This document shows, in pieces, positions 2,962-30,723 of a DNA stretch of 32,000 bases (position 1 is its first letter; each line of letters starts with the position of its first letter). The translations under genes and the position numbers were made by a program. This stretch comes from Geotalea uraniireducens Rf4 (GTDB lineage Bacteria > Desulfobacterota > Desulfuromonadia > Geobacterales > Geobacteraceae), in assembly GCF_000016745.1 (NCBI RefSeq), contig NC_009483.1, forward strand, positions 1,980,001 to 2,012,000, given 5' to 3'. The notes under the pieces are model-generated. The model did not search any database. It had not been told where the DNA came from and was given only the letters and a program-made list of their open reading frames with translations.

Positions 2962-4299
2962 ATGGATTTTCAACAAATCGCAGGAAACATCGAACGACTC
3001 CTTAAATCCCGTGTTCCGGACGGTTACGAGATCATGCTCGGCGCTTCCCGGAACCTTTCCATCGAGGTCAAGGATCAGCAGGTGGACACCTTCAAGTGTT
3101 CCGAGCCGGTGGGGGTGAGTGTCCGGGTGCTGAAGGCGCACGGCATGGGCTTTTCCTTTTCCACCAGCATGGATGATGCCGACCTTGTCAGAATGATCGA
3201 CAATGCGGTTATCGGCGCCGAGACCCAGACCCCCGATGAATTCAACGGTTTTCCACCCCCCCAGTCGTACCTGGATGTGTCCGGGATGTTCGATGCAGGA
3301 CTGGCGGCAGTCGGCGAAGAGGAAAAGATCGGCCGCGCCCTTGAGCTGGAGCGTCTGACACTGGCGGAGGACAGCCGCGTAAAACGTGTGCGTAAGAGCA
3401 CCTATGGCGAGTCGAGCTATGAGGTCTTCATTCGCAATTCACTGGGAGTCGAGGGGAGTTACCGCGGCACGTCGGTTTCCAGCAGCATTTCTGCCGTGGC
3501 AGAGGAAAACGGCGATTCCCAGATGGGGTGGGATTTCGGTTTCAGCAACCGTTTCAGCGGCGTTGACGTTGCGCTGATCGCAAGAACCGCGGCAGTCAAG
3601 GCAACGGGCCTGCTCGGGGCGCGAAACATTCCTACCCTCAGGTGTCCGGCGCTGCTTGACAACTATGTGGCCACGGAAATTCTCGAAGTGCTGGCCTCCT
3701 CCTTTCTTGCCGAAAACGTCCAGAAAGGGAAGTCGCTCTTGGCGGGGAAAACGGGGGAGCGTCTCTTTGCCGGCTGCCTGCGGATTGTCGATGACGGGCT
3801 CCTCCCCGGCGGCATGGCGACCACCCCCTTTGACGGCGAGGGGGTGCCGATGCAACGCACCCTCCTTGTAGAAGGGGGCGTTTTGCAGGGGTTGCTATAC
3901 AACAGTTACTGCGCCCGCAAGGATGGGGTTGCCTCGACCGGCAATGCGACGCGGAGCGGGGTCAAGAGTCCGCCGCACATGGGGGTGAGCAACTTCTTCA
4001 TCGAGAACGGCCTCACCCCTTTTGCCGAACTGTTGAAAGGAATCGACCAGGGGGTGCTCGTGACCTCCGTGATGGGGATGCATACCGCCAATCCCATATC
4101 CGGCGATTTTTCCGTAGGGGCGGCGGGGTTTTTCATCGAGAACGGAGTCGTGGCATATCCCATAAAAGGCATTGCCATTGCCGGTAATATCCTCGACCTG
4201 TTCCGCGACGTGGACGGGATAGCGGACGATCTGCGCTTTTTCGGTGCGGTCGGTTCTCCCGCTTTAAGGATTGCGGCGCTGGATGTGAGCGGAGAATAA
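2962..4299 (+). CDS. pmbA: TldD/PmbA-family protein, PmbA (TldE)-like; no HExxxH motif seen
   Basis: ORF 2923..4299. The ATG at 2962 (MDFQQIAGN...) follows GAGG at 2953-2956. Family-typical C-terminus ...GMHTANPISGDFSVGAAGFFIENG... Confidence 0.8.
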   Translation: MDFQQIAGNIERLLKSRVPDGYEIMLGASRNLSIEVKDQQVDTFKCSEPVGVSVRVLKAHGMGFSFSTSMDDADLVRMIDNAVIGAETQTPDEFNGFPPPQSYLDVSGMFDAGLAAVGEEEKIGRALELERLTLAEDSRVKRVRKSTYGESSYEVFIRNSLGVEGSYRGTSVSSSISAVAEENGDSQMGWDFGFSNRFSGVDVALIARTAAVKATGLLGARNIPTLRCPALLDNYVATEILEVLASSFLAENVQKGKSLLAGKTGERLFAGCLRIVDDGLLPGGMATTPFDGEGVPMQRTLLVEGGVLQGLLYNSYCARKDGVASTGNATRSGVKSPPHMGVSNFFIENGLTPFAELLKGIDQGVLVTSVMGMHTANPISGDFSVGAAGFFIENGVVAYPIKGIAIAGNILDLFRDVDGIADDLRFFGAVGSPALRIAALDVSGE

Positions 4300-4326
4300 A
4301 AAAATCCCCTTCGGGAAGGGGATTTG
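4296..4326. terminator. Bidirectional intrinsic terminator shared by convergent pmbA and arsR
   Basis: AAAAAA-ATCCCCTT-CGGG-AAGGGGAT-TTT. The 8-bp GC-rich stem (4304-4311 / 4316-4323) has an A-run upstream and T's downstream. Confidence 0.75.
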
Positions 4327-6797: not shown

Positions 6798-8876
6798 TCA
6801 GGCTCTGGCGTATGATGCTGCGACCCTGGGTGTCTTGGCTGGAGGCACGTGGGAGTTGTTGAGCAGCTCGATAAAATGAGGAACCAGTTCCGGGTCGAAT
6901 TGGCTTCCTGAGTTGTCACAGAGTTCTTTGATAGCCACTTCTACTGAAAGGGCCTTACGGTAGGGACGGTCGGATGTCATGGCATCAAATGCGTCGGCAA
7001 TGGCAAGGATGCGCGATTCCAATAAAAGCTCGGAGGCCGGGACGCTGTTGGGGTAACCTTGGCCGTCGTAACGCTCATGGTGCTGACCTATACAGAGTCT
7101 GACATCCTGAAGGAATTCGATCGGCTCCAGAATCTTCATGCCGATAGTCGGGTGCTGCTGGAGGTCGTTGATATCATCTGTTGTGAGCCTTCCCTCTTTA
7201 TGGAGCAGGGTCAGGTCTATGCCGATCTTGCCTATGTCGTGAAGTATGGCGGCCCGCTCGATGACTTTCAGTCTTTCCTGGGGAAGGTCCAGCTTCTTGG
7301 CCAGTTCCAGGCTGTAACGGGTAACTCGTTCCGAATGGCCGCGGGTATAACTATCACTTGCTTCTATGGCTGAAACAAGGGCCTGAATGGTGTTCAGGTA
7401 GGTTTTCTGCTGATCGTCGTAAAGTTTTGCGTTTTTGATGGCGATACTGGCCTGGGCGGCGATCGTGGTCAGCAGTTCAAGCTCTTCGTGGTTATAGGTG
7501 GTGTTGTCAAGCTTGTTCACCACGGTAATCGTGCCGATGATCTCATCTTTTGTTATCAGGGGGGCACAGATCAAGGTTTTCCGCTCGTAGCCGAGGGCGC
7601 TGAACGTGTCGAACTCGGGGGTCTGTTTTATGTCGACAATCAGCAACGGTTTGCAGTTCTCGATAACCCAGGTGGAGACGCTGGAAGGTTTCATGGGTAG
7701 TATCGTGCCTGAAGGTGAAATATTTTCATGGCCTATGAGGGTGGTTATGACGAGTTCCTGATGTTCCTGGTTATAGAGTATAATGTAGCCGATCTGGGCA
7801 TGGAGGGTTTCCATGGTTGTCTTGACGATCAGGTTGAAAAGATTGTCGATCTCCATTGTGGAATTTATTGCCAACCCCACTTTGTAGAGGGTTGAAAGTT
7901 TCGATACGGCTTTTTCCAGAGTGGTATTCTTGTCTTCCAGTTCACCGGCCAGGTCGGCGATCTTGTAGTTTGCCTCTTCTATCTCTTCGATCCGTTCTTC
8001 GAGAGTAACGTTCAAATTCTCGATTTCTTTGATCTGTTCTTCGAGTTTCTGATTCATCAGGTGTGTTTCTCGATGGTGCGACAGTTTTTCCTGTGCCCGA
8101 GCGAGTTCGCGTTCGTGATTTATGCTTGTGTCCATCATGTTCTTGAATTTTTCCACCATGCGGTTGAAGCTTTCGGCAAGGATGCTCATCTCGTTGCTGC
8201 TTGTTATCATGGTTCTTTTCTCGAAATTCCCCTTTTCCACCTCTTCCATGGTTGATATGAGCTTTCGTATCGGTTTGTCCACATAGAATATCAGGAAAAT
8301 GGAAACGATGAAGATAATCAGGGCTATGATAAGCGTCGTTGCTACGATGGTATTATGTCTTTCCTTGGCGATGAATCTGTCCATGTAGTTCATCGACAGT
8401 TCTATTTCAAGTATCCCCAGTACTTTTTTGGCCGGATTGTGACACTGGTGACAGACTGGTGAGTTCATTATGCGGCTGAAAGAATCGTATATTTTACCGT
8501 TGTTTTCCCGCTGGAATGTGGGCAGAACAGTTTTTTTGAGATCCAGTCGGTCATTTTCCGATATGAGTTGGCCGACTTCACTCCGGTCTGCAGAGTTGAG
8601 AATCTTGCCTGTCTCATCCAATATGCGCAAAGAGGAAATCAGCTCTTTTGATCTGATGCGGCTGAATATACTGCTGATTTCTTCCGAGTGACCGGAGCGC
8701 ATGGCGTCGTTGATGCTGCTCTTTACGGTTTCAGTCAGCACATTGGCATTATGGCTGGCCATCTCGTAGAGCATCTCCGTCTGATGCCGGTAATTGAGAA
8801 ATGCCGCAAGTGTAACGACAGCTACCAGGGTAATGGTAATGAGCCCTATGATTTTTATCTTCAGTGAATTAATCAT
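6798..8876 (-). CDS. Membrane-anchored sensor protein: TM, periplasmic domain with CXXCH, TM, HAMP, coiled coil, GAF, HD-GYP (c-di-GMP phosphodiesterase class)
   Basis: 692 aa. TM1 IIGLITITLVAVVTLAAFL and TM2 IVATTLIIALIIFIVSIFLIFYV. CHQCH is encoded at 8439-8453. The HD-GYP signature is AAILHDIGKIG ... HHERYDGQGYP. Confidence 0.85.
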   Translation of the reverse strand: MINSLKIKIIGLITITLVAVVTLAAFLNYRHQTEMLYEMASHNANVLTETVKSSINDAMRSGHSEEISSIFSRIRSKELISSLRILDETGKILNSADRSEVGQLISENDRLDLKKTVLPTFQRENNGKIYDSFSRIMNSPVCHQCHNPAKKVLGILEIELSMNYMDRFIAKERHNTIVATTLIIALIIFIVSIFLIFYVDKPIRKLISTMEEVEKGNFEKRTMITSSNEMSILAESFNRMVEKFKNMMDTSINHERELARAQEKLSHHRETHLMNQKLEEQIKEIENLNVTLEERIEEIEEANYKIADLAGELEDKNTTLEKAVSKLSTLYKVGLAINSTMEIDNLFNLIVKTTMETLHAQIGYIILYNQEHQELVITTLIGHENISPSGTILPMKPSSVSTWVIENCKPLLIVDIKQTPEFDTFSALGYERKTLICAPLITKDEIIGTITVVNKLDNTTYNHEELELLTTIAAQASIAIKNAKLYDDQQKTYLNTIQALVSAIEASDSYTRGHSERVTRYSLELAKKLDLPQERLKVIERAAILHDIGKIGIDLTLLHKEGRLTTDDINDLQQHPTIGMKILEPIEFLQDVRLCIGQHHERYDGQGYPNSVPASELLLESRILAIADAFDAMTSDRPYRKALSVEVAIKELCDNSGSQFDPELVPHFIELLNNSHVPPAKTPRVAASYARA

Positions 8877-19060: not shown

Positions 19061-22000
19061 ATGAAACTACAGGTGCTTTCGCCAGCAAAATCCCTCAACA
19101 GGGCCTACCTCAAGCAGAGCCTCAAGCGGGACCAGATTGAGCTTTTTAAGGCTAATCTCTCCCGGCTCTTCGACAGAATCAACGAAAAAGAGTCGGAAGA
19201 AAATCTGAAAAACATCGTCTCCGACTTTCTCAAGGACACCTGGTACAAAAACGGCTATGAGGTTAACACCAAGGAGCGCGCCGACCTGGTCATTCACAAC
19301 GGCAAATCGGCTGCTGATACGGTGGGGGTCATCGTTGAGGTGAAACGTCCCGCCAACAGAAACGAGATGATCACCCCGGATCGCCCCAACACCAAGGCGC
19401 TGCATGAGCTGCTCCATTACTACATGCAGGAGCGTTTTATCAAGGACAACAAGGAGATCAGGCACCTCATTGTCTGCAACATCTTCGAGTGGTACATCTT
19501 CGATGCCGCCGACTTCGAGCGGTTTTTCTTCGGCAACGCAAAGCTTGTAAAGAGCTACAAGGACTGGAACGACGGGCTGCTGGTTGGGGCCAACACCGAC
19601 TGGTTCTATCAGGAAATCGCCAAGGATTTTATTGAAAAGAACCTCACCGAACTTCCCTGCACCTGCTTCGATCTGAAGGAGTTCGAGCGCATTGCCCGCA
19701 ATTCCGCCAAGACCGACGACAAAAAACTGATCAACCTCTACAAGATCCTTTCCCCGGCCCACCTGCTCAAGCAGCCCTTCGCCAACGACAGCAACTCGCT
19801 CAACAAGGAATTTTACGGCGAACTGCTCCATATCCTCGGCCTGGAAGAGGTCAGGGAGAAAGGGAAAAAACTCATCGGCCGCAAGCCTGTCGGGGCGCGT
19901 AACGACGAATCTCTCTTGGAAAATACCTTCAATCTCCTCAAATCCCGCCACCGGTTGAGCGCTATTGCCAATCCCGGGCAATTCGGCGTCAGCGAGGAAG
20001 AGCAGTACTTCAGCATCGCCCTGGAGTTGTGCATCACCTGGCTTAACCGCCTCTTGTTCCTCAAGCTCCTCGAAGGGCGGCTGATCGCCTATCACAAGGG
20101 AAACCGAGACCATGCCTTCCTCAACAGCAACCTGATCAGCGACTTCGACGAACTGAACGAGCTCTTCTTCGAGGTGCTGGCTGTCCGCATCGAAGAGCGT
20201 TCGGAATCGGTGCGGAAGAAATTCGGCAACATTCCCTACCTGAACAGTTCCCTCTTCGAGGAGAGCGACTTGGAAAGGACGACTATCCGCATCAATGAGC
20301 TGAAGAACCGGCTCGACCTTTCCATCTACTCCTCGACCGTCCTCAAGGACGGCAACGGCAGGCGGATCAGCGGCAGCAAGAGCACCCTCCACTACCTGTT
20401 CGAATTCCTCGACGCTTACGACTTCGCCACCGAGGGGAGCGCCGAGATCCAGGAGCAGAACAAGACCATCATTAACGCCTCGGTGCTGGGTCTGATCTTC
20501 GAGAAGATCAATGGATACAAGGACGGTTCCTTCTTCACCCCTGGTTTCATCACCATGTACATGTGCCGTGAAACCATCCGACGCGCCGTGCTGCAAAAGT
20601 TCAACGATAAATACGGCTGGACGTGCAAGGATTTTACAGAGTTGTACAACACCCTCGACAAGATTGGCACCAAAGAGGCCAACGAGGTTGTCAACAGCCT
20701 CAAGGTCTGCGACCCGGCCGTAGGAAGCGGTCACTTCCTCGTTTCTGCGCTGAATGAAATCATCTCCATCAAGTCTGACCTGGAAATCCTCGCCGATAAG
20801 GACGGCAAAAGGGTGCGCGGCAACGTCACCATAGAAAACGATGAGCTGATCATTACCCGCGACGACCAGATTTTCGCCTACGACTATATGGACGCTGAGT
20901 CCCAGCGGGTGCAGGAGACCCTCTTCCACGAAAAAGAGACCATCATCGAGAACTGTCTGTTCGGCGTGGACATCAACCCCAAGTCTGTCATGATCTGCCG
21001 CCTGCGGCTCTGGATCGAACTCTTGAAGAACGCCTATTACCGCCCCCCCTCTCCCCGACCCTCTCCCACCGGGGGAGAAGGGGTTATCCCCCCGCCCTTG
21101 ATGGGAGGGGGCAAGGGGGAGGGTGAAAAGCGGCAGTTGGAAACCCTCCCCAACATCGATATCAACATCAAGTGCGGCAACTCGCTGGTCAGCCGTTTCG
21201 CCCTTTCCGGCAATCCCAATATCCCACAAGTCAGCCGGAAGAAACTGAAAGAGCTGACCGACAAATACCGTGATCTGGTCTGGTCCTACAAGCAATCGCC
21301 CAGCAACAAGGTGCAACTGCGCAAGGCCATCGAAAACCTGAAGCACGATCTGGAGAGCTTCGCCCTCCCCAACGACAGGGACCTTGCGGCCCTGCGCAAA
21401 AAGGAAAACGAGCTGGCCCAGCTCGGATTTGCCTTTGACAAAAAAGGGACCGAGCAGCGACAAAAGCTCCTCTCCGAGGTAGGGGCGCTGAAAGAGCGCT
21501 TCGATGAAAAACAGCGCTCGGTCTACGCCAACGCCTTTGAATGGCGGCTGGAGTTTCCGGAGGTGTTGGATGCGGAAGGGGAGTTCGTCGGCTTCGATGC
21601 CATCATCGGCAACCCGCCCTATATCCGCCAGGAGGCGATCAAGGAGATGAAGCCGGCCCTGACTGAGATGTTCGGCAGTTTTTTCTGTGGCACGGCAGAT
21701 ATTTACACTTACTTCTACAAGACGGGCCTGGACGTGGCGAAGCCGGGTGCAACACTGTGTTACATCGCCCCTAACAAGTTCATGCGGGCCGGATACGGTA
21801 AAAACACACGCGAACTCCTGACCTCGCAAGCTAAGCCGCTCATGGTCCTAGATTTCGGTGATCTGCCTATTTTCGAGGAGGCTACTACATATCCGTCAAT
21901 TGTGATGGTGGAGAAGATGCAGGCCGTAGGGGCGAAGCAAGCTTCATCTGCTTCGCCCGCCTTTGGAGGCCGTGCCAGCAAGGGCGAAGCAGGTAAATCT

Positions 22001-22960
22001 TTTGCTTCGCCCCTACAGGAACCCCAATTCCTCGCCGCCACATTCACCAATGCGGACCAGTTGTCACGGTTCGACGAGGTGTTGCCGTCTATCGGCTTCA
22101 CCATGCCGGTATCGGCCCTTAGGTCTGAGGGGTGGACCCTCGAACGGCCGGAAGTGCTGGGGCTGATGGAGAAGCTGAGAAAGGCCGGGAAGCCGCTGGG
22201 TGAGTATGTGAATGATAAAATATACCGCGGTGTCCTAACCGGTTTAAACGAGGCTTTTGTCATCGATGAAGAGACAAATACAAAGTTGGTTGCTGAAGAC
22301 CCGCGGAGCGCGGAGATCATTAAACCTTGGCTGCGGGGGAAAGACATTTTCAAGTGGAAGACAAAGTGGGCGGGATTGTATGTGCTTTTCACCCGGAGAG
22401 GAACGGATATTGAACAATACCCGGCCATAAAACGCCATCTGGAACAATTCCGCGAAGATTTGGAACCAAAGACTTCGGACAACAATAAACGCGGCAGGAA
22501 ACCGGGACCGTATAAGTGGTTCGAAATACAGGACAACATTGCCTATTTTGAGGAATTTGATAAGGCAAAGATTCTTTGGCCTGGTATCAGTGCGGAGCTT
22601 ACTGTCTTTTCTCTCGATGAAGATGGCTATTTTGGCAATGACAACAATCAACTTATCATTTCCGGGGATCGTTGTTTGCTTGCTATTCTCAATTCAAAAC
22701 TGATGGGTTTTGTGTTGAAGCAAATCTGCGACAAGGTTCAAGGTGGGTTTTACCGACTTAAAATCATTTATATTGAACAACTCCCCATCCCACCCGCCAC
22801 CGACGCCCAGAAAGCCCCCATCATCGAGCTTGTCGAGAAAATCCTCGCCGATCCCGCCAGCTCCACCGTTCCGCAGTTTGAGGCGGAGATTGACCGGCTG
22901 GTGTATGAGCTGTACGGGCTGACAGAGGCGGAGATCGCGGTAGTGGAGGGGGCAGCATGA
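19061..22960 (+). CDS. Single-polypeptide type IIG/IIL restriction-modification enzyme (Eco57I/MmeI-like: N-terminal PD-(D/E)xK nuclease, N6-adenine methyltransferase, TaqI-like C-terminal specificity domain)
   Basis: 1299 aa. Nuclease-like motif ADLVIH...VIVEVKRP, SAM motif I VCDPAVGSGHFLV (~20700-20740), NIKCGNSLV, catalytic GNPPY (21608-21622), and C-terminal GVLTGLNEAFVIDEE...IIKPWLRGKDI. No separate M or S gene lies nearby. Confidence 0.85.
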   Translation: MKLQVLSPAKSLNRAYLKQSLKRDQIELFKANLSRLFDRINEKESEENLKNIVSDFLKDTWYKNGYEVNTKERADLVIHNGKSAADTVGVIVEVKRPANRNEMITPDRPNTKALHELLHYYMQERFIKDNKEIRHLIVCNIFEWYIFDAADFERFFFGNAKLVKSYKDWNDGLLVGANTDWFYQEIAKDFIEKNLTELPCTCFDLKEFERIARNSAKTDDKKLINLYKILSPAHLLKQPFANDSNSLNKEFYGELLHILGLEEVREKGKKLIGRKPVGARNDESLLENTFNLLKSRHRLSAIANPGQFGVSEEEQYFSIALELCITWLNRLLFLKLLEGRLIAYHKGNRDHAFLNSNLISDFDELNELFFEVLAVRIEERSESVRKKFGNIPYLNSSLFEESDLERTTIRINELKNRLDLSIYSSTVLKDGNGRRISGSKSTLHYLFEFLDAYDFATEGSAEIQEQNKTIINASVLGLIFEKINGYKDGSFFTPGFITMYMCRETIRRAVLQKFNDKYGWTCKDFTELYNTLDKIGTKEANEVVNSLKVCDPAVGSGHFLVSALNEIISIKSDLEILADKDGKRVRGNVTIENDELIITRDDQIFAYDYMDAESQRVQETLFHEKETIIENCLFGVDINPKSVMICRLRLWIELLKNAYYRPPSPRPSPTGGEGVIPPPLMGGGKGEGEKRQLETLPNIDINIKCGNSLVSRFALSGNPNIPQVSRKKLKELTDKYRDLVWSYKQSPSNKVQLRKAIENLKHDLESFALPNDRDLAALRKKENELAQLGFAFDKKGTEQRQKLLSEVGALKERFDEKQRSVYANAFEWRLEFPEVLDAEGEFVGFDAIIGNPPYIRQEAIKEMKPALTEMFGSFFCGTADIYTYFYKTGLDVAKPGATLCYIAPNKFMRAGYGKNTRELLTSQAKPLMVLDFGDLPIFEEATTYPSIVMVEKMQAVGAKQASSASPAFGGRASKGEAGKSFASPLQEPQFLAATFTNADQLSRFDEVLPSIGFTMPVSALRSEGWTLERPEVLGLMEKLRKAGKPLGEYVNDKIYRGVLTGLNEAFVIDEETNTKLVAEDPRSAEIIKPWLRGKDIFKWKTKWAGLYVLFTRRGTDIEQYPAIKRHLEQFREDLEPKTSDNNKRGRKPGPYKWFEIQDNIAYFEEFDKAKILWPGISAELTVFSLDEDGYFGNDNNQLIISGDRCLLAILNSKLMGFVLKQICDKVQGGFYRLKIIYIEQLPIPPATDAQKAPIIELVEKILADPASSTVPQFEAEIDRLVYELYGLTEAEIAVVEGAA
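21041..21127. repeat. GC-rich C-run/G-run palindromic element inserted in frame in the RM gene
   Basis: CCCTCTCCC-ACC-GGGGGAGAAGGGG (21059-21083) and CCCCCCGCCC-TTGAT-GGGAGGGGG (21088-21111) are imperfect hairpins. They are nested in an outer C-rich (21043-21056) / G-rich (21112-21124) pair. The translation is the low-complexity PPSPRPSPTGGEGVIPPPLMGGGKGEG. Confidence 0.7.
21926..22016. repeat. MITE-like nested inverted-repeat element inserted in frame in the RM gene
   Basis: The terminal inverted repeats are GTAGGGGCGAAGCA (21926-21939) and TGCTTCGCCCCTAC (22003-22016). The internal copies are TGCTTCGCCC (21949-21958) and GGGCGAAGCA (21982-21991). These give two 10-bp perfect hairpins. The translation is VGAKQASSASPAFGGRASKGEAGKSFASPLQ. 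Confidence 0.75.
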
Positions 22961-23388: not shown

Positions 23389-23724
23389 ATGATTGCCGTT
23401 ACGGAATCTCTTCTCAAGGAAATGGCTGAAAAAATAGTTGCAGCGGTGAATCCCCGGATGATCATCCTGTTCGGCTCCCATGCGCGGGGAACGGCCGGGC
23501 CTGATTCGGACCTCGATTTCATCGTTGTCGAGGATGGTCCCTTCGGTCCCGAGCGAAGCCGTCGCGCCGAGATGGTGAAACTGTGGCGACTGCTGCGAGA
23601 TGTCAGGGTTGCCAAGGACTTTCTGGTCTTTACCCCCGAAGAGGTGGAAAAGTGGCGGGATGCGCCGAACCATGTGGTATCCCATGCGTTGAGTGAAGGG
23701 CGGGTGCTGTATGAGCGCCATTGA
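23389..23724 (+). CDS. Minimal nucleotidyltransferase (MNT/MntA-like antitoxin-type protein)
   Basis: 111 aa. The Pol-beta-type NTase motif is LFGSHARGTAGPDSDLDF. It overlaps the downstream HEPN gene. Confidence 0.8.
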   Translation: MIAVTESLLKEMAEKIVAAVNPRMIILFGSHARGTAGPDSDLDFIVVEDGPFGPERSRRAEMVKLWRLLRDVRVAKDFLVFTPEEVEKWRDAPNHVVSHALSEGRVLYERH

Positions 23725-24103
23725 AAATGCCTCCATGCTCCTGGTCATGGCCACCAAGGATGTCAGGGCCATGCGGGCGCTGGCCGCCCCGGAATCGGTA
23801 GATGACGAGATCTTCGGTTTTCATGCGCATCAAGCGGTGGAAAAGACACTGAAGGCGTGGATAACGGTGGTCGGCGGGACGTATGGCAGGACTCATGACT
23901 TGAGTCAGCTTTTTGCTCTCCTGGCTGACCTTAGCTGTGATGTCCGGCGCTTCGAGGACTTGGATATGCTTAATCCATTTGCCGTTGAGTTGAGGTACGA
24001 GGCGCTTGACACCGGCGAGCCGAAACTTGACCGTCCTTTCTGCATAACCCGTGTTCAGGAGCTGTATGACCATGTCCGGCAGATTGTTGAACGAATGGCA
24101 TAG
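23711..24103 (+). CDS. HEPN-domain protein (HepT-like toxin-type partner of MNT)
   Basis: ORF 23693..24103. The ATG at 23711 (MSAIENASML...) overlaps the MNT gene by 14 nt. HEPN-like features are FHAHQAVEKTLKAWI, GRTHDLSQL and VELRYEA. Confidence 0.7.
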   Translation: MSAIENASMLLVMATKDVRAMRALAAPESVDDEIFGFHAHQAVEKTLKAWITVVGGTYGRTHDLSQLFALLADLSCDVRRFEDLDMLNPFAVELRYEALDTGEPKLDRPFCITRVQELYDHVRQIVERMA

Positions 24104-24281: not shown

Positions 24282-25127
24282 TCACGATGCGACGGGTATG
24301 ATGTCGCCGGCCAGGATTATCTTGTCCTCTTCCAGTGTGACGGCATGGGCGCTGTGCTCGATGAGGTCGTAGAGGTGGAGATATTTGGCCACTTCCGCCG
24401 GTTGATTCGTTTTTCTGCCGAAGTATTTTCCCGGTTGGCTGAAGACGTCGGTTACCACCCGGTCGTCGTAGATGGCGAAATCAAAGGAGCTGTTGGTATC
24501 CCGGTTGCTGATGTCGCTTGCCGACGGCAGTTCGTCTCGGAAGGCGATGCGCACGTCGATATTGTCGTTGTACTGGGCGAGGAGGACCTTCTGCACCTCC
24601 GGTTCGATGATTGCCTCGCGGTTGGCGACGAAGATGCGGGTGATTTTTGCGCCGCGCTCCAGGGCGCGCAGGTTTGCCTGGTAAAAATTGAGCAATACTC
24701 CTCGTGAATCCCATCCCGTCGTAAGAGGGTCCACCGCTTTTGTGTGGTGGACCGCCTGTTCCATCTGCTTTGCCCCCTCCAGGTAAAATTCGGTCTCATC
24801 CATCGGGATATACCCCTGTTGCAAGAGCGAGACCGTCCGCATCGTCGAAGCCATCAGTTCGTGTGCCTTGGTCTGACATTCCGGGTCGCTGATCCGGGCA
24901 ATGGCGAAGGTGACCTCGTGGGCATGATGATACTGGTCGAGCAGCCCTTCACGGGTCTTTTCTATCTCCTCCCGCACAAGGTAGGTGACGAGCGACAGGA
25001 GTATGCCTATGCCGAAGATGGTGTAGGCGGCTTCCGGATAATGGAGCACCCAATGAAAAAAGATGGCAAGCCCTGAGCCTGCGATAAATTCGATTAATAC
25101 TGCGATATTGTTGATCTTTTTATTCAT
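24282..25127 (-). CDS. Uncharacterised protein with two N-terminal TM helices and a ~210-aa soluble domain of unknown function
   Basis: ORF 24282..25196. I prefer the ATG at 25127 (MNKKINNIAVLIEF...), after GGAGG (25138-25142). The longer version would overlap the intrinsic terminator at 25170-25219. TM segments are IAVLIEFIAGSGLAIFFHWVL and AYTIFGIGILLSLVTYLV. I recognise no catalytic motif. Confidence 0.65.
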   Translation of the reverse strand: MNKKINNIAVLIEFIAGSGLAIFFHWVLHYPEAAYTIFGIGILLSLVTYLVREEIEKTREGLLDQYHHAHEVTFAIARISDPECQTKAHELMASTMRTVSLLQQGYIPMDETEFYLEGAKQMEQAVHHTKAVDPLTTGWDSRGVLLNFYQANLRALERGAKITRIFVANREAIIEPEVQKVLLAQYNDNIDVRIAFRDELPSASDISNRDTNSSFDFAIYDDRVVTDVFSQPGKYFGRKTNQPAEVAKYLHLYDLIEHSAHAVTLEEDKIILAGDIIPVAS

Positions 25128-25169
25128 GTTTGAGAATCCTCCAATAACTTTACAAGTTTTTTCGAACGC

Positions 25170-25219
25170 AAAAAAGCCGGGTCTCCGAATATCCATCTAG
25201 ATATTTCGGCGACCCGGCT
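25170..25219 (-). terminator. Intrinsic terminator (expression platform of the riboswitch; could also end htpG transcripts)
   Basis: The minus strand reads AGCCGGGUCGCCGAAAUAU-CUAGAUGG-AUAUUCGGAGACCCGGCU followed by UUUUUU. The stem is ~17 bp with one mismatch and one bulge. It sits 43 nt upstream of the ATG at 25127. Confidence 0.8.
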
Positions 25220-25290
25220 GTCTTCTTGAGACCCTGTAGGCTTTCCGTCCCATCCTCGCGGATGGTTTGGTATTATCGTTTATCTATCCG
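25201..25290 (-). promoter_or_regulatory. GEMM-I class cyclic-dinucleotide riboswitch aptamer (type 2, GYRA tetraloop; A at the G20-equivalent position)
   Basis: Minus-strand RNA 25290->25201 reads CGGAUAGAUAAACGAUAAUACCAAACCAUCCGCGAGGAUGGGACGGAAAGCCUACAGGGUCUCAAGAAGACAGCCGGGUCGCCGAAAUAU. As I recall it, V. cholerae Vc2 reads CACGCACAGGGCAAACCAUUCGAAAGAGUGGGACGCAAAGCC...AGCGGGGUUACCGA. Ours has CAAACC, the hairpin AUCC-GCGA-GGAU, GGGACGGAAAGCC, and AGCCGGGUCGCCGA. The closing pair covaries (Vc2 GC...GC, here CC...GG). Confidence 0.7.
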
Positions 25291-25312
25291 ACCTGCTCTG
25301 TAAGTTGCTCAA

Positions 25313-25341
25313 ACCATAATGCAGATACCGGCAAAAGTCAA
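25313..25341 (-). promoter_or_regulatory. Candidate sigma70 promoter driving the riboswitch leader
   Basis: The minus strand reads TTGACT (25341-25336), a 17-nt spacer, then TATGGT (25318-25313). This is ~20 nt upstream of the aptamer. Confidence 0.4.
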
Positions 25342-25433
25342 GTCCGGCGACTCATTAGGATGTTACAACCATGTAAACTTTTCATCAGGCCCCAGAGGCA
25401 TTAATACCCCCTAGGTTGCTCTGACGGCAAAGC

Positions 25434-27371
25434 TTACTTTTCCGCGGCTTTCACCATCAGTTCGGCAACGAGCCTCGTGAAGCGGAGCGGGTCGGGGACC
25501 GGCGATCCTTCGGTCAAAAGAGCCTGGTCGTAAAGCAGTCCGCAGTAATCGGCCAGCCGCGGGTTCTCCTTATCTTTTTCAAATATACTGCTCAGGACCT
25601 GCATGAGCGGATGGTCGGGGTTCAGTTCCAATACCCGTTTGGACTCAGGCACATCCTGGTTCATTGCCTTGAGGATCTTTTCCATGTTCGCATTCAGCCC
25701 GTATTCATCGGCAACCAGGCAGCAGGCGCTGTCGGTCAGACGGCTGGAAAAGCGCACTTCCTTTACCTTGTCCTTTAACTGTTCCTTGACGAAGTCGAGT
25801 ACCCCCTGATACTGCTTTTTGGCCTCTTCCTGCTTCGCTTCCTTCTCTTTCTTCTCTTCCGCGCTGTCAAGCTCCAGGTCCCCCCGGTCGACCGCGTGCA
25901 GTTTCTTGCCGTCGTAGTCGGTCAGGCTCTGCACTACCCACTCATCGACCGGGTCGGTCATGTATAGCACCTCGAATCCCTTTTTCCTGAAGATTTCCAG
26001 ATGCGGCGAGTTTTCCAGGGCGGAACGGGAGGCTCCGGTGATGTAGTAGATTTCCTTCTGCGCCTCCGGCATCCGTGCCACGTACTCTTTCAGCGAGATG
26101 TAGTTTCCGGCCTCGGTTTTCGAGCTTTCAAAGAGGATCAGTTCCTGGAGCTTTTCCTTGTTGGCATGGTCGAAATGCACCCCTTCCTTGAGCACCGGGC
26201 CAAATTCCTTGTAAAACTTCAGGTAATCTTCCGGCGTTTTTTCTTTTGTTTCCACAAGTGTTGACAGGATCTTGCCGACCAGGTTTTTCTCGATCCGCTT
26301 GATCTGGATGTCTTCCTGGAGGATTTCGCGGGAAACGTTGAGCGGCAGGTCGCTGGAATCCACCACACCCTTCATGAAGCGGAGGTAATCGGGGAGAAGC
26401 GCTTCGCAGTTGTCGGTGATGAAGACACGCTTCACATAGAGGTGCACACCCTTTTTATGGTCGCGCATGAACAGGTCAAAGGGCTTGTGGCTCGGGATAT
26501 AGATGAGGGCCTTGAATTCGCTGGTCCCTTCCGCCGAATAGTGGATGGTGCGAAACGGTTTGTCATAATCGTGGGAGATGTGCTTGTAGAACTCCTCGTA
26601 TTCCTCTTCGCTGATTTCGCTTTTGGCCCTGGTCCAGATCGCCTTCATGGAGTTGAGGGTTTCTTCGGTGGTCTTCTCGATGGTGCCCCCCCCCTCAATG
26701 ACCTCGCCGTCAACGCCTTTGGCCGGTTCGTCCCGCGTCACGTCCATGACGACCGGGTACTGCACATAATCGGAATATTTCTTGATGATGCTGCGGATCT
26801 TCCACTCATCGAGATATTCCTTCATCTCATCCTTCAGGTGGAGGGTAATGTCGGTGCCGCGGGTCTCCTTCTCGCAATCCTCGATGGTATAGCTGCCGTC
26901 GCCGGTCGATTCCCAGCGGCAGGCGGCATTTTTGTCCCCCGCCTTGCGGGTGATCAGGGTGACCTTGTCGGCAACCATGAACGAGGCGTAGAAACCGACG
27001 CCGAACTGGCCGATCAACTCGGGATTGTTCTGAACGTTTTTATCTTTGAGGTTCTCCATGAAGGCGCGGGTGCCTGAACGGGCAATGGTGCCGATGTTCT
27101 CTTCCACCTCGACCACGTTCATACCGATGCCGTTGTCGCGGATGGTGAGGGTGCCGGCAGTTTTGTCCGGTATCAGTTTGATCTTCCAATCGGTATTGCC
27201 TTCGAGGATATCCATGTTGGAATGGGATTCGAATTTGACCTTATCAATGGCGTCGGAAGCGTTGGAAACAAGCTCGCGCAGGAAGATGTCCTTGTTGGAG
27301 TAGAGTGAGTGGATCACCAGGTCGAGAAGCTGCTGCACTTCGGTTTCAAATTTTTTGGTGCTTTTGGTCAT
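25434..27371 (-). CDS. htpG: Molecular chaperone HtpG (Hsp90)
   Basis: ORF 25434..27401. I prefer the ATG at 27371 ([41 protein letters not shown]), after AAAGGAG. GHKL ATPase motifs are DNGIGM and GQFGVGFYS. Confidence 0.95.
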
Positions 27372-27761
27372 GTACTTTATTTCTCCTTTTGACGTAGTCA
27401 TTGATGGAACTTCAACAAACTAATCATTGTGGCGTGGTTTTGCAAGGTGCAATTTGCAGTTTGTTCGCAATGCTCCTGTTTGTTTGCGGTTTCCCGGGAG
27501 ATTTTGCATTACTGTTCCCGAAAAACCGGGTGCAGCGACGAGCCCGATTTCGGTGATCTGGCGATGAATTGATGCAATAGTGGACAAACATAATTTGGAA
27601 AACAAATTGATTCCCGTTGAATGTTTCATTTAATATATTTCATATACAAACTCTGGACATGTTTTGAATAATAATATACTGTTCTACATTTAAATTTACC
27701 GTGCTATTACAGTGGGTTAGTAAGTTATTTGTTTGTAAATAGCGGCTATCTTGCATCTGTT

Positions 27762-27828: not shown

Positions 27829-30723
27829 GTGAAAATCCGTATCCGTCTCAAAACCGCACTCATTGTCAATTATATTCTTGTCGCCGTAATCCCTCTGCTG
27901 ATTATCGGCCTGATTTCCCTTCATTTCGAACGGCGGGACCTGCTGCGTGTTATTTCCGGCAAGAATATGCTGCTTGCCGAAACAGTGGCGGAGGAGGTCG
28001 ATACATTTCTCCAGGAGCCGTTGAACATGCTTCGCCAGGTGGGAGAGGTGACACATCGTGAGCGGTACTTGAAGGGGGCAGACTTCAACGTATTTATTGA
28101 TTCGATCGTAGCAACATACAGTTTTTTTGAATCTATCTATATTCTTGATGACAAGGGCCGTGCCGATCATGTCGGCCTGCTGCCCGGGATCAAGGGCCGC
28201 AAGGCGGAATATCTGGGGAAAGATATGGCGGGTGAGGAGTTTTACAAGACCGCCCGGCAGAAGAAAGGCCACTGGTGGACGAGTACCTCCTTGTCCCGGA
28301 TCAGCGGGGAGCCGTCTCTTACCCTTGCCGTTCCCGTCATTAACGGAATGGTGGTCGGCAACCTGAACCTCCGGGCGCTCGATAAGATTATCGCGCCGAT
28401 AAACAGGAGGAAGGGTATTTATGCATACATCGTCAACAGGGACGGGAGGGTAATCGCCCATCCGGACAGGACAAACGTGCTGCAGCAATTGAACGTTGCC
28501 GATCTGAACATCGTTAAGGCCGGACTTGCCGGCACCAATGGAACATATCGTTATTTTTTCAAGGGGGTGGAACGGCAGGGGAGCGTTGCGGTCGTTCGTG
28601 AAAGCGGCTGGCTGGTGGTTATCGCCCAGAACCTGGATGACACTCTGGCGCCGGTGAGAAGGATGGAGAAAATATTTCTGGCCGGACTCCTCGGATCGCT
28701 TCTCGTGGCATTATTCAACACGATCTGGAGTCTGGAGTTGTTGCTGAAACCGGTTTCGGCCCTGATAAACAGTACCCAGAAGATCGCTGTTGGAAATTAT
28801 GCCATAGATAATGAGCCGATCAATATCAAGGAGGTCGGTGAGCTGGCGGTTCATCTGCAATCCATGGCCGGGGCGGTCATGAGCCGCGAAGAGGCCCTGC
28901 GTGAGCAGAATGAAGAACTCTCCATGACCGAAGAGGAGCTGCGTCAGCAGGTGGATGAATATCTGAAGAGCCAGGATGAACTTCTCGAGACCAATCATGC
29001 TCTGGAGGCGTTATTTAAGGCCGCACCGCTGGCTATCATCGCCTTTGATGCAACCGGTAAGGTGAAAATGTGGAATCCCGCCGCCGAAAGGATCTTTGGT
29101 TGGGGACGAGACGAAGTTGTCGGCAATCTCTATCCGCTCATTCCTGATGGGAAAATGGACGAATTTCAGGCGTATCTCGACAGGGCGCTCGCCGGAGAGA
29201 CCCTTGCGGGCATCGAGCTGCGTCGCCAGAAGAAGAGTGGCTTGCCTATAGATATCTCTCTCGATGCAGCGCCATTGCATAACGCCAAGGGGGAAATTGC
29301 CGGCGTTATAGCGCTTCTGGCCGATATCGGCGAGCGAAAACAGGCAGAGAAGGCTCTTTGGGAAAGCGATAAACGATTTACCCTGTTCATGGACAATCTC
29401 CCAGCAAGGGCATACATGAAGGATGTCAACGGCCATTACATCTATGTTAATGAGACATTACGCCGCTACTTCGCCGAGCGAAAGATCGCCTGGTTTGGCA
29501 GGAGGGACGACGACATCTGGCCGGCCTCCACCGCAGCCCTGTTCAAGGAAAACGACCTTTTCGTGCTTGAGCAGAAGAGGGCTGTCCAGGTGATAGAGCC
29601 GGTTGTCGAGGATGACAGGCTGTCCTACTGGCTTAACAGCAAATTTCCGATTTTCAACGAGAACGGCGATTCCATCATCACCGCCGGTGTTACCGTCGAC
29701 ATAACGGAACGCAAGCAGGCGGAAGATGCGCTACAGGCGGAACGGGCGCGGCTGTTTTCCTTGTTACAGGGGCTCCCCGCCTATGTCTACCTCAAGGCGC
29801 AGGATCATACCGTCCGTTTTGCCAATAGCTATTTCCGCCAGAACTTTGGTGATCCGGAAGGTAAAAAATGCTACGATATCTTCCACGGAAATCACGGCCT
29901 TTGTTGCGAATGCCGGACGTTGCACTCGCTGGAAACGCAGACCACATGTAAATGGGAATGGACCGCCGGCACAGGCAGGACATACGAAGTCTATGATTAT
30001 CCTTTTACCGACAGTGACGGTTCCCCTCTAACGCTGGAGCTGGGGATCGACATCACGGAGCGGATCGCGGCAGAGGAGCAGACAAAGGCGTCTCTCAAGG
30101 AAAAAGAGGTGTTGCTGAAGGAAATCCACCATCGCGTCAAAAATAATCTCCAGGTCATCTCCAGCTTGCTCAATCTTCAATCCCGCCATATCCACGATCA
30201 GCGGGATGTGGATATGTTCATGGACAGTCAGAACCGCGTTAAATCCATGGCCCTTATCCATGAAAACCTCTATCAGACCAAGAACCTGGCGCGCATTGAT
30301 TTTGCAGGATACATCCGCAAACTTTCCGCGAATCTGTTCAGATCCTACGGAATCAACATCAATGCCGTTAATCTTAATCTCAACATAGCCGATGTCTCTC
30401 TTGGCATAGATACGGCTGTTCCATGCGGCCTGATGATCAACGAGCTGGTTTCCAACTCATTGAAACACGGATTCCCACAGGGTAGAAAAGGGTCAATCGA
30501 CATCGAATTGCTGACGGATTACGCCGGCAACCATACCCTGATCGTCAGGGATAATGGTGTCGGATTTCCGGCGGACCTGGATTTTCAATCAACTGAATCA
30601 CTTGGTCTGCAACTGGTAGGAACCTTGACCGAACAGATTGGCGGTAGTATTGTCCTTGACAGGGAAAACGGCACGGAATTCAGGATAAATTTCAAAGAAT
30701 TGAAATACAAGGAGCGGGTATAA
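27829..30723 (+). CDS. Sensor histidine kinase: TM, Cache-type periplasmic domain, TM, HAMP, coiled coil, three PAS domains, HisKA_2, HATPase_c
   Basis: 964 aa with a GTG start. The Cache-like part is YILDDKGR...GIYAYIVNRDGRVIAHPD. The PAS repeats are each followed by DI(T/G)ERKQAE. The H-box is EIHHRVKNNLQVISSLLNLQ (HisKA_2 type). ATPase motifs are NELVSNSLKHGFP and DNGVGFP. Confidence 0.9.
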   Translation: MKIRIRLKTALIVNYILVAVIPLLIIGLISLHFERRDLLRVISGKNMLLAETVAEEVDTFLQEPLNMLRQVGEVTHRERYLKGADFNVFIDSIVATYSFFESIYILDDKGRADHVGLLPGIKGRKAEYLGKDMAGEEFYKTARQKKGHWWTSTSLSRISGEPSLTLAVPVINGMVVGNLNLRALDKIIAPINRRKGIYAYIVNRDGRVIAHPDRTNVLQQLNVADLNIVKAGLAGTNGTYRYFFKGVERQGSVAVVRESGWLVVIAQNLDDTLAPVRRMEKIFLAGLLGSLLVALFNTIWSLELLLKPVSALINSTQKIAVGNYAIDNEPINIKEVGELAVHLQSMAGAVMSREEALREQNEELSMTEEELRQQVDEYLKSQDELLETNHALEALFKAAPLAIIAFDATGKVKMWNPAAERIFGWGRDEVVGNLYPLIPDGKMDEFQAYLDRALAGETLAGIELRRQKKSGLPIDISLDAAPLHNAKGEIAGVIALLADIGERKQAEKALWESDKRFTLFMDNLPARAYMKDVNGHYIYVNETLRRYFAERKIAWFGRRDDDIWPASTAALFKENDLFVLEQKRAVQVIEPVVEDDRLSYWLNSKFPIFNENGDSIITAGVTVDITERKQAEDALQAERARLFSLLQGLPAYVYLKAQDHTVRFANSYFRQNFGDPEGKKCYDIFHGNHGLCCECRTLHSLETQTTCKWEWTAGTGRTYEVYDYPFTDSDGSPLTLELGIDITERIAAEEQTKASLKEKEVLLKEIHHRVKNNLQVISSLLNLQSRHIHDQRDVDMFMDSQNRVKSMALIHENLYQTKNLARIDFAGYIRKLSANLFRSYGININAVNLNLNIADVSLGIDTAVPCGLMINELVSNSLKHGFPQGRKGSIDIELLTDYAGNHTLIVRDNGVGFPADLDFQSTESLGLQLVGTLTEQIGGSIVLDRENGTEFRINFKELKYKERV

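Follow-up and report, generated by a model that had tools for sequence, protein, structure and literature searches.

A probable cGAMP-type GEMM-I riboswitch in front of a PLD-like membrane protein gene of Geotalea uraniireducens

Introduction

GEMM-I riboswitches with a GYRA tetraloop and without a tetraloop receptor reportedly received the name 'type 2' from Sudarsan et al. in 2008, and Kellenberger et al., Nelson et al. and Ren et al. are said to have described the Geobacter GEMM-Ib elements as 3',3'-cGAMP riboswitches in 2015. We take Gs1761/pgcA of G. sulfurreducens and Gm0970 of G. metallireducens to be the representatives of this subclass. The receptor-less form with an overlapping terminator was already depicted in 2007, when ON logic was predicted for it and the Geobacter family was identified as the place where GEMM is most abundant (Weinberg 2007, Fig. 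2B, PMC1950547). GEMM-Ib is conserved in most Geobacter species and acts by anti-termination, and transcripts under its control drop after deletion of the cGAMP synthase GacA (PMC6456294). In G. sulfurreducens, 12–13 of 17 GEMM-I riboswitches bind cGAMP (PMC8835794).

Here we analyze a GEMM-I element on the minus strand of a 32-kb stretch of DNA from Geotalea (formerly Geobacter) uraniireducens; this whole stretch is referred to as the window, and coordinates are those of the window, with (-) and (+) for the strand. An earlier note, made from the letters of the sequence, had likened the element to Geobacter GEMM-Ib. As the host is itself Geotalea/Geobacter uraniireducens, this likeness goes beyond analogy: the element is a member of the same clade-specific subclass. 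Taken as a whole, our reading is that of a cyclic-dinucleotide riboswitch with GEMM-I fold, belonging to the A20 subclass of Geobacter (GEMM-Ib), that responds mainly to cGAMP and works as a transcriptional ON switch for the monocistronic gene of a membrane-anchored protein with a PLD-like fold. Judged from the sequence, we consider this combination probable.

The riboswitch class, the A20 signature and anti-termination are already known from the work of 2007 and 2015 and from Geobacter, and the locus is an ordinary example of them. What is mildly new is which protein family is regulated and how tightly it is linked to the aptamer across Geobacterales. The locus adds one gene, for a conserved PLD-like membrane protein without family annotation, to the presumed Geobacter-type cGAMP regulon, which governs contact-dependent metal-oxide respiration. 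Beyond correct annotation its significance is small.

The aptamer and its closest relatives

The whole window was scanned with cmscan against Rfam 15 at gathering thresholds. The sole match above its gathering score was RF01051 (c-di-GMP-I/GEMM-I) at 25205-25281 (-), which covers model positions 1-87 of 87 with 50.7 bits (gathering score 35) and an E-value of 2.9e-07. The GEMM-I match claimed in the earlier note is thus real and well above chance. Since the score exceeds the Rfam cut-off, NCBI's PGAP or any other Rfam-based pipeline should label such a match as a cyclic-di-GMP-I riboswitch. All of the motifs by which the aptamer had been recognized, namely CAAACC, the hairpin AUCC-GCGA-GGAU, GGGACGGAAAGCC, a short P3 hairpin and AGCCGGGUCGCCGA, were found in the minus-strand sequence.

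Around the Rfam core, the full aptamer extends over 25200-25285 (-) when the elongated P1 (GAUA...UAUC and CG/CG) is included. Its alignment to RF01051 reveals an AAA linker between two hairpins, the first of which contains a conserved ACG-type internal loop. P2, which corresponds to Weinberg's P1, occupies 25250-25265 (-) and consists of a six-pair stem, CCAUCC/GGAUGG, closed by a GCGA tetraloop at 25259-25256; among 46 distinct relatives, both partners change in four of its six pairs. P3, a short hairpin at 25211-25241 (-), reads GGGUCU/AGAC..CC; it has a loop of 5 nt and, close to its base, a UACA internal loop. Type 2 elements are distinguished by a GYRA tetraloop and by a second hairpin without the 11-nt receptor CCUAAG/UAUGG (PMC1950547). 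The loop found here is of the GYRA type, P3 has no 11-nt receptor and its 3' strand is devoid of UAUGG, so the earlier proposal of a type 2 GEMM-I element with a GCGA loop agrees with the published form. Compared with that form we see no difference in architecture; when it was described in 2007 (PMC1950547), the ligand had yet to be discovered.

Three known systems are instructive for comparison, of which this type 2 form is the first. The second is Vc2 of Vibrio cholerae, the archetype of RF01051, which is captured by the same Rfam model and shares the two-hairpin fold, the AAA linker and the contacts made by A47 and C92. It differs in having G at position 20, where A is present here, and in its GAAA tetraloop and P3 receptor, in contrast to the GCGA loop and the short receptor-less P3 of our element. 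The pairs beside position 20 also diverge: they are G-C then C-G in the Rfam consensus, C-G then C-G here and C-G then U-G in most relatives.

The third system is Geobacter GEMM-Ib. Our element comes from the same family (Geobacteraceae), adopts the GEMM-I fold, carries A20, keeps A47 and C92 and is built onto a terminator-based ON platform. In neighbouring loci, an aptamer of this type stands before a multihaem cytochrome gene, a typical GEMM-Ib target, whereas the gene regulated here encodes an uncharacterised PLD-like membrane protein and not a cytochrome, pilus or polysaccharide protein. If the A20 equivalent is numbered as A14 of Gs1761, the invariant A three positions before it, at 25274 (-), coincides with the ligand-contacting A11 (PMC5888326). 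In a full-text literature search, the aptamer core sequence returned no match.

Rfam also holds a second candidate family, RF03167 (c-di-GMP-I-GGC), whose members would have a different ligand specificity. In a 401-nt scan this model scored 52.3 bits, slightly above RF01051, which probably reflects the short P3 without receptor that both share. The score nevertheless stays below the RF03167 gathering score of 59, and a genuine member of the family, found at L059:5128-5206, reaches 60.4 bits. Moreover, the nucleotide matching Vc2 A47 is A and not the G that defines the RF03167 consensus, and A is likewise found where RF03167 keeps G20. We therefore rejected membership in RF03167; at the level of sequence this assignment is already refuted, and we leave it hardly any probability. 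The L059 member, which is unrelated to the A20 aptamers, has G at position 20. An A20 aptamer is found on the Geobacter contig that carries it, showing that different specificity variants of GEMM-I co-occur in one genome.

Ligand contacts and ligand preference

The base at position 20 takes part in reading the ligand (PMC6140456, PMC6456294). In the RF01051 model, Vc2 G20 is model position 11, an unpaired G on the 5' side of two closing pairs, which aligns with maximal posterior probability to an A at 25271 (-). The alignment to RF03167 puts the same A at the G20 position. Both models hence agree with the earlier note, which had proposed an A at this site. The residue corresponds to A14 of Gs1761 and would read the alpha base of the ligand. 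The A47 equivalent, the intercalating adenine, is the first A of the AAA linker at 25244 (-), where RF03167 has its defining G. The C92 equivalent, which would form a Watson-Crick pair with the beta guanine of the ligand, is located at 25209 (-); it is also paired in the terminator stem described below. Its placement follows from the structure line of RF03167, which sets an unpaired GC directly before the 3' strand of P1. In a 16-sequence alignment the A47 and C92 equivalents are invariant, and at the G20-equivalent column A is found in all 47 strong matches of the aptamer subfamily.

How position 20 selects the ligand has been worked out in related aptamers. G20 recognizes one guanine of the ligand by its Hoogsteen edge, and A14 of Gs1761 pairs with the adenine of cGAMP (PMC6140456). 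In the Gmet_0970 aptamer, the exchange A20G converts a cGAMP-selective into a c-di-GMP-selective riboswitch (PMC6456294), and Geobacter A20 aptamers prefer cGAMP by a factor of about 1200 to 1600 (PMC6456294; PMC8835794). By analogy with these aptamers, 3',3'-cGAMP is likely to be the main ligand of our element.

The same fold and the same ON switch would also be compatible with c-di-GMP as the physiological ligand, or with a bispecific GEMM-I aptamer that responds to both c-di-GMP and cGAMP. Rfam files the aptamer under c-di-GMP-I, and both Vc2 G20A and the natural A20 aptamer Cbe 1-2 bind both ligands through adenine protonation, so that A20 is necessary for cGAMP selectivity and not always sufficient (PMC6140456). 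Gs1761 itself discriminates only about 3-fold in one K+-free buffer, its measured selectivity being strongly dependent on construct and K+ (PMC6140456). In the Geobacter background, however, position 20 alone flips selectivity, as the A20G exchange in Gmet_0970 demonstrates (PMC6456294), and the preference reported for Geobacter A20 aptamers is large. In addition, A20 does not vary among 47 related aptamers belonging to several genera, a constancy that speaks for selection on this base. We regard a c-di-GMP or bispecific switch as unlikely but as deserving some weight, and favour cGAMP.

Conservation across relatives

One genome per species was scanned with an alignment of the downstream protein, which gave 70 loci, 62 of them with an intact gene start. 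In 39 of these 62 an aptamer is positioned 60-285 nt upstream of the gene start, and the full set of elements recurs: promoter, A20 aptamer, co-varying terminator and the gene for the 281-aa protein. These loci belong to Geobacteraceae, Desulfuromonadaceae, Pelobacteraceae, Geomonas, Oryzomonas and Geomobilimonas. Rfam likewise places RF01051 just upstream of the homologue in Geobacter-type loci. Among the 62 loci, the riboswitch is missing from all those of Syntrophales and Smithella and from some of Geobacteraceae; no other Rfam riboswitch was found upstream of the gene in the loci without aptamer.

A covariance model, R1, was built from 16 related aptamers and identified 47 strong matches with 81-112 bits, the aptamer of the window scoring 111.9 bits. 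The aptamer columns are 93% identical among the related loci. The stems bear the marks of a maintained structure: in 46 distinct aptamers 98.5% of the cells are paired and nine pairs change on both sides, compared to 1.8 in shuffles; in slid controls the paired fraction drops to 31-47%. The terminator is similarly maintained. A hairpin followed by a run of U5-9 and using the same 5' arm is present in 43 of 47 related leaders, and its 3' arms vary and compensate, for example GGGUC/GACCC versus GGGCC/GGCCC.

Several genomes of Geobacteraceae contain a second aptamer, about 90% identical and also with A20, just after the gene (L014:3960-4044, L015:3962-4046, L017:3960-4044 and L021:3976-4059), and in L006 two copies are arranged in tandem about 150 nt apart (3989-4073 and 4224-4308). 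The second aptamer of L014 precedes the gene of a multihaem cytochrome c that contains an fn3 domain. In Geobacter sp. AOG1, htpG is followed by the riboswitch, the PLD-like gene, another riboswitch of the same type and finally a multihaem cytochrome c with fn3 domain; the succession of htpG, riboswitch and gene is found in L014 as well. In the window, the position of the second aptamer is instead taken by a HEPN/nucleotidyltransferase gene pair on the opposite strand.

Promoter, terminator and switching mechanism

The riboswitch lies downstream of htpG (Hsp90 family; 25434-27401 (-)), which is context only and outside the switch. The intergenic gap had been put at 235 nt, which is wrong: from the htpG stop codon TAA (25436-25434 (-)) to the ATG at 25127 the spacer measures 306 nt. 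Within it, the promoter read by the earlier note is present, with the -35 box TTGACT at 25336-25341 (-) and, after a 17-nt spacer, the -10 box TATGGT at 25313-25318 (-), from which we infer a transcription start near 25306. Considered in the window alone, TTGACT-17-TATGGT (25341-25313) is at chance level, with one site found and 0.8 expected. In nearly all of the 39 related loci, the -35 sequence TTGAC(A/T) recurs at the equivalent distance and a TTGAC(A/T)-17-TAnnnT pair precedes the aptamer by 26-34 nt. The promoter reading is supported because this pair of boxes is kept at a fixed distance from the aptamer while the flanks diverge.

Further upstream, at 25361-25369 (-) and about 25 nt from the -35 box, a TGTAAC/GTTACA-like or TTGCAAC-like motif is found, which is sometimes repeated or inverted. 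Such a motif precedes the -35 box by about 15-29 nt in only 12 of the 39 loci, with equivalent positions in L002, L018, L020, L025, L030, L034, L043, L048, L058 and L068. It could be a transcription-factor operator in a subset of genomes.

An intrinsic terminator was revealed by folding at 25170-25219 (-). It comprises a hairpin at 25219-25175 and a U6 run at 25175-25170, in accordance with the hairpin and U6 described before. The hairpin has 19 pairs with two single-base interruptions, owing to which a simple terminator scanner missed it. Its folding energy of -30.5 kcal/mol corresponds to z = -6.3 relative to 200 dinucleotide shuffles, none of which folds as well. The 5' arm of the terminator (25219-25199) reuses the aptamer segment 25219-25200, an overlap of 20 nt made up of the P3 3' strand, the C92 equivalent and the P1 3' strand along with its conserved GAUA/UAUC extension. 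As terminator and aptamer compete for these 20 nt, the sequence points to ON-switch logic, just as the note had argued from the terminator arm being the 3' strand of the aptamer. The GGAGG and the ATG at 25127 that the note had listed are likewise present; this Shine-Dalgarno sequence, at 25138-25142 (-), precedes the start codon by 10 nt.

When the leader from about 25306 to 25165 is folded, the terminator is part of the minimum-energy structure, which reaches -52.4 kcal/mol; the best fold with the aptamer enforced reaches -30.4 kcal/mol. Termination would be the default state, because the terminator fold is far more stable than the aptamer-enforced one. By analogy with other kinetically controlled riboswitches we infer that the ligand would have to act during transcription. 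The following sequence of events can be proposed. Transcription would start about 20 nt upstream of the aptamer from the conserved sigma-70-type promoter, and P2 and P3 would form as the RNA emerges. The ligand, most likely 3',3'-cGAMP, would be clamped by A25271 at its alpha base, by the intercalating A25244 and by C25209 at its beta guanine. Once it is bound, P1 with its GAUA/UAUC extension should close and keep 25219-25200 in the aptamer, such that the terminator could not nucleate and RNA polymerase would read into the gene. Without ligand, the more stable terminator hairpin would form and transcription would stop at the U6 run.

Another explanation of the region would be that the hairpin and U6 run constitute the terminator or a 3' UTR element of htpG and that the aptamer match is a decayed, non-regulatory relic. 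No separate terminator was detected by the simple terminator scanner between htpG and the riboswitch promoter (25434 to 25341), and the promoter match alone is at chance level, both of which would fit such a scenario. Yet promoter, aptamer and terminator are kept as a unit before the homologous gene in 39 loci, including loci where the upstream neighbour is not htpG, and in several loci the unit also precedes a cytochrome gene. Aptamer columns that are 93% identical and stems that co-vary are equally at odds with decay. We consider an htpG terminator with a relic aptamer very improbable and retain the anti-termination switch. Transcripts that read through from htpG may also enter the switch, given that no terminator was detected between this gene and the promoter.

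The regulated gene and its product

The regulated gene at 24282-25127 (-) encodes a protein of 281 aa in which two N-terminal transmembrane helices are followed by a C-terminal domain of PLD-like fold. This product shares 100% identity with a hypothetical protein from Geotalea uraniireducens. The longest open reading frame is 24282-25196 (-) with 304 aa, whose ATG at 25196 lies inside the terminator hairpin. We discarded this start: the homologues have 281 aa and all begin with MNKK, and GGAGG precedes the ATG at 25127. Annotation by the longer frame would hide the terminator within the coding region.

The protein has more than 1000 homologues, the best 120 listed being 74-100% identical. Sequence searches against Pfam, PADLOC and PDB gave no significant match, and NCBIfam only a sub-threshold PLD-like hint. 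The AlphaFold model (pLDDT 68, pTM 0.58) has two N-terminal hydrophobic helices, which are supported by hydropathy, and a C-terminal alpha/beta domain. In a fold search this domain matched members of the PLD superfamily, namely NucT, Zucchini, the TrmBL2 C-terminal domain and PLD itself, with E-values around 1e-6 and TM-scores up to 0.70 on the target; the PLD-like assignment is made at the fold level from a model of moderate confidence. Because the HxK(x)4D motif is missing from all 43 homologues inspected, the modelled PLD-like domain is probably non-catalytic or of different chemistry.

In Smithellaceae (L009:2018-3846 and 482-1909), the homologous gene lacks a riboswitch and overlaps with the stop of a gene of the Exo_endo_phos family, and a cardiolipin-synthase-like PLDc_2 gene adjoins this pair on the opposite strand. 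This context hints at a role of the 281-aa family in lipid or phosphoester metabolism. One may go further and suppose that the protein is an unrecognised effector of the Geobacter cGAMP regulon acting on the cell envelope or on lipids, an idea that derives from the linkage of Syntrophales homologues to phosphatase/nuclease and cardiolipin-synthase-like genes, and that the aptamer subfamily with its extended P1 might differ in ligand preference from characterised GEMM-Ib. Taken together, we hold these two suppositions to be quite doubtful.

Genomic neighbourhood

No gene for a GacA-type Hypr GGDEF protein (cGAMP synthase) was found within the 32-kb window. A 692-aa HAMP-GAF-HD_5 protein with an HD-GYP-type domain is encoded at 6798-8876 (-), about 16 kb from the riboswitch. 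HD-GYP-type enzymes degrade c-di-GMP, and some in Vibrio degrade 3',3'-cGAMP. On the other side of htpG, a sensor histidine kinase of 964 aa with the architecture dCache-PAS-PAS-HisKA_2 is encoded on the opposite strand at 27829-30723 (+), starting about 430 nt beyond the htpG start codon.

At 23389-24103 (+), two overlapping genes code for a 111-aa nucleotidyltransferase (NTP_transf_2/Polbeta) and a 136-aa HEPN protein; they converge with the regulated gene and look like an MNT-HEPN toxin-antitoxin pair. They are joined by the gene for a 1299-aa protein at 19061-22960 (+), which contains DUF7149, DUF7814, Eco57I methylase and TaqI_C specificity domains and looks like a type IIG restriction-modification enzyme. 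Together, the HEPN/MNT pair and the type IIG-like enzyme point to a small defence island downstream of the gene under riboswitch control.
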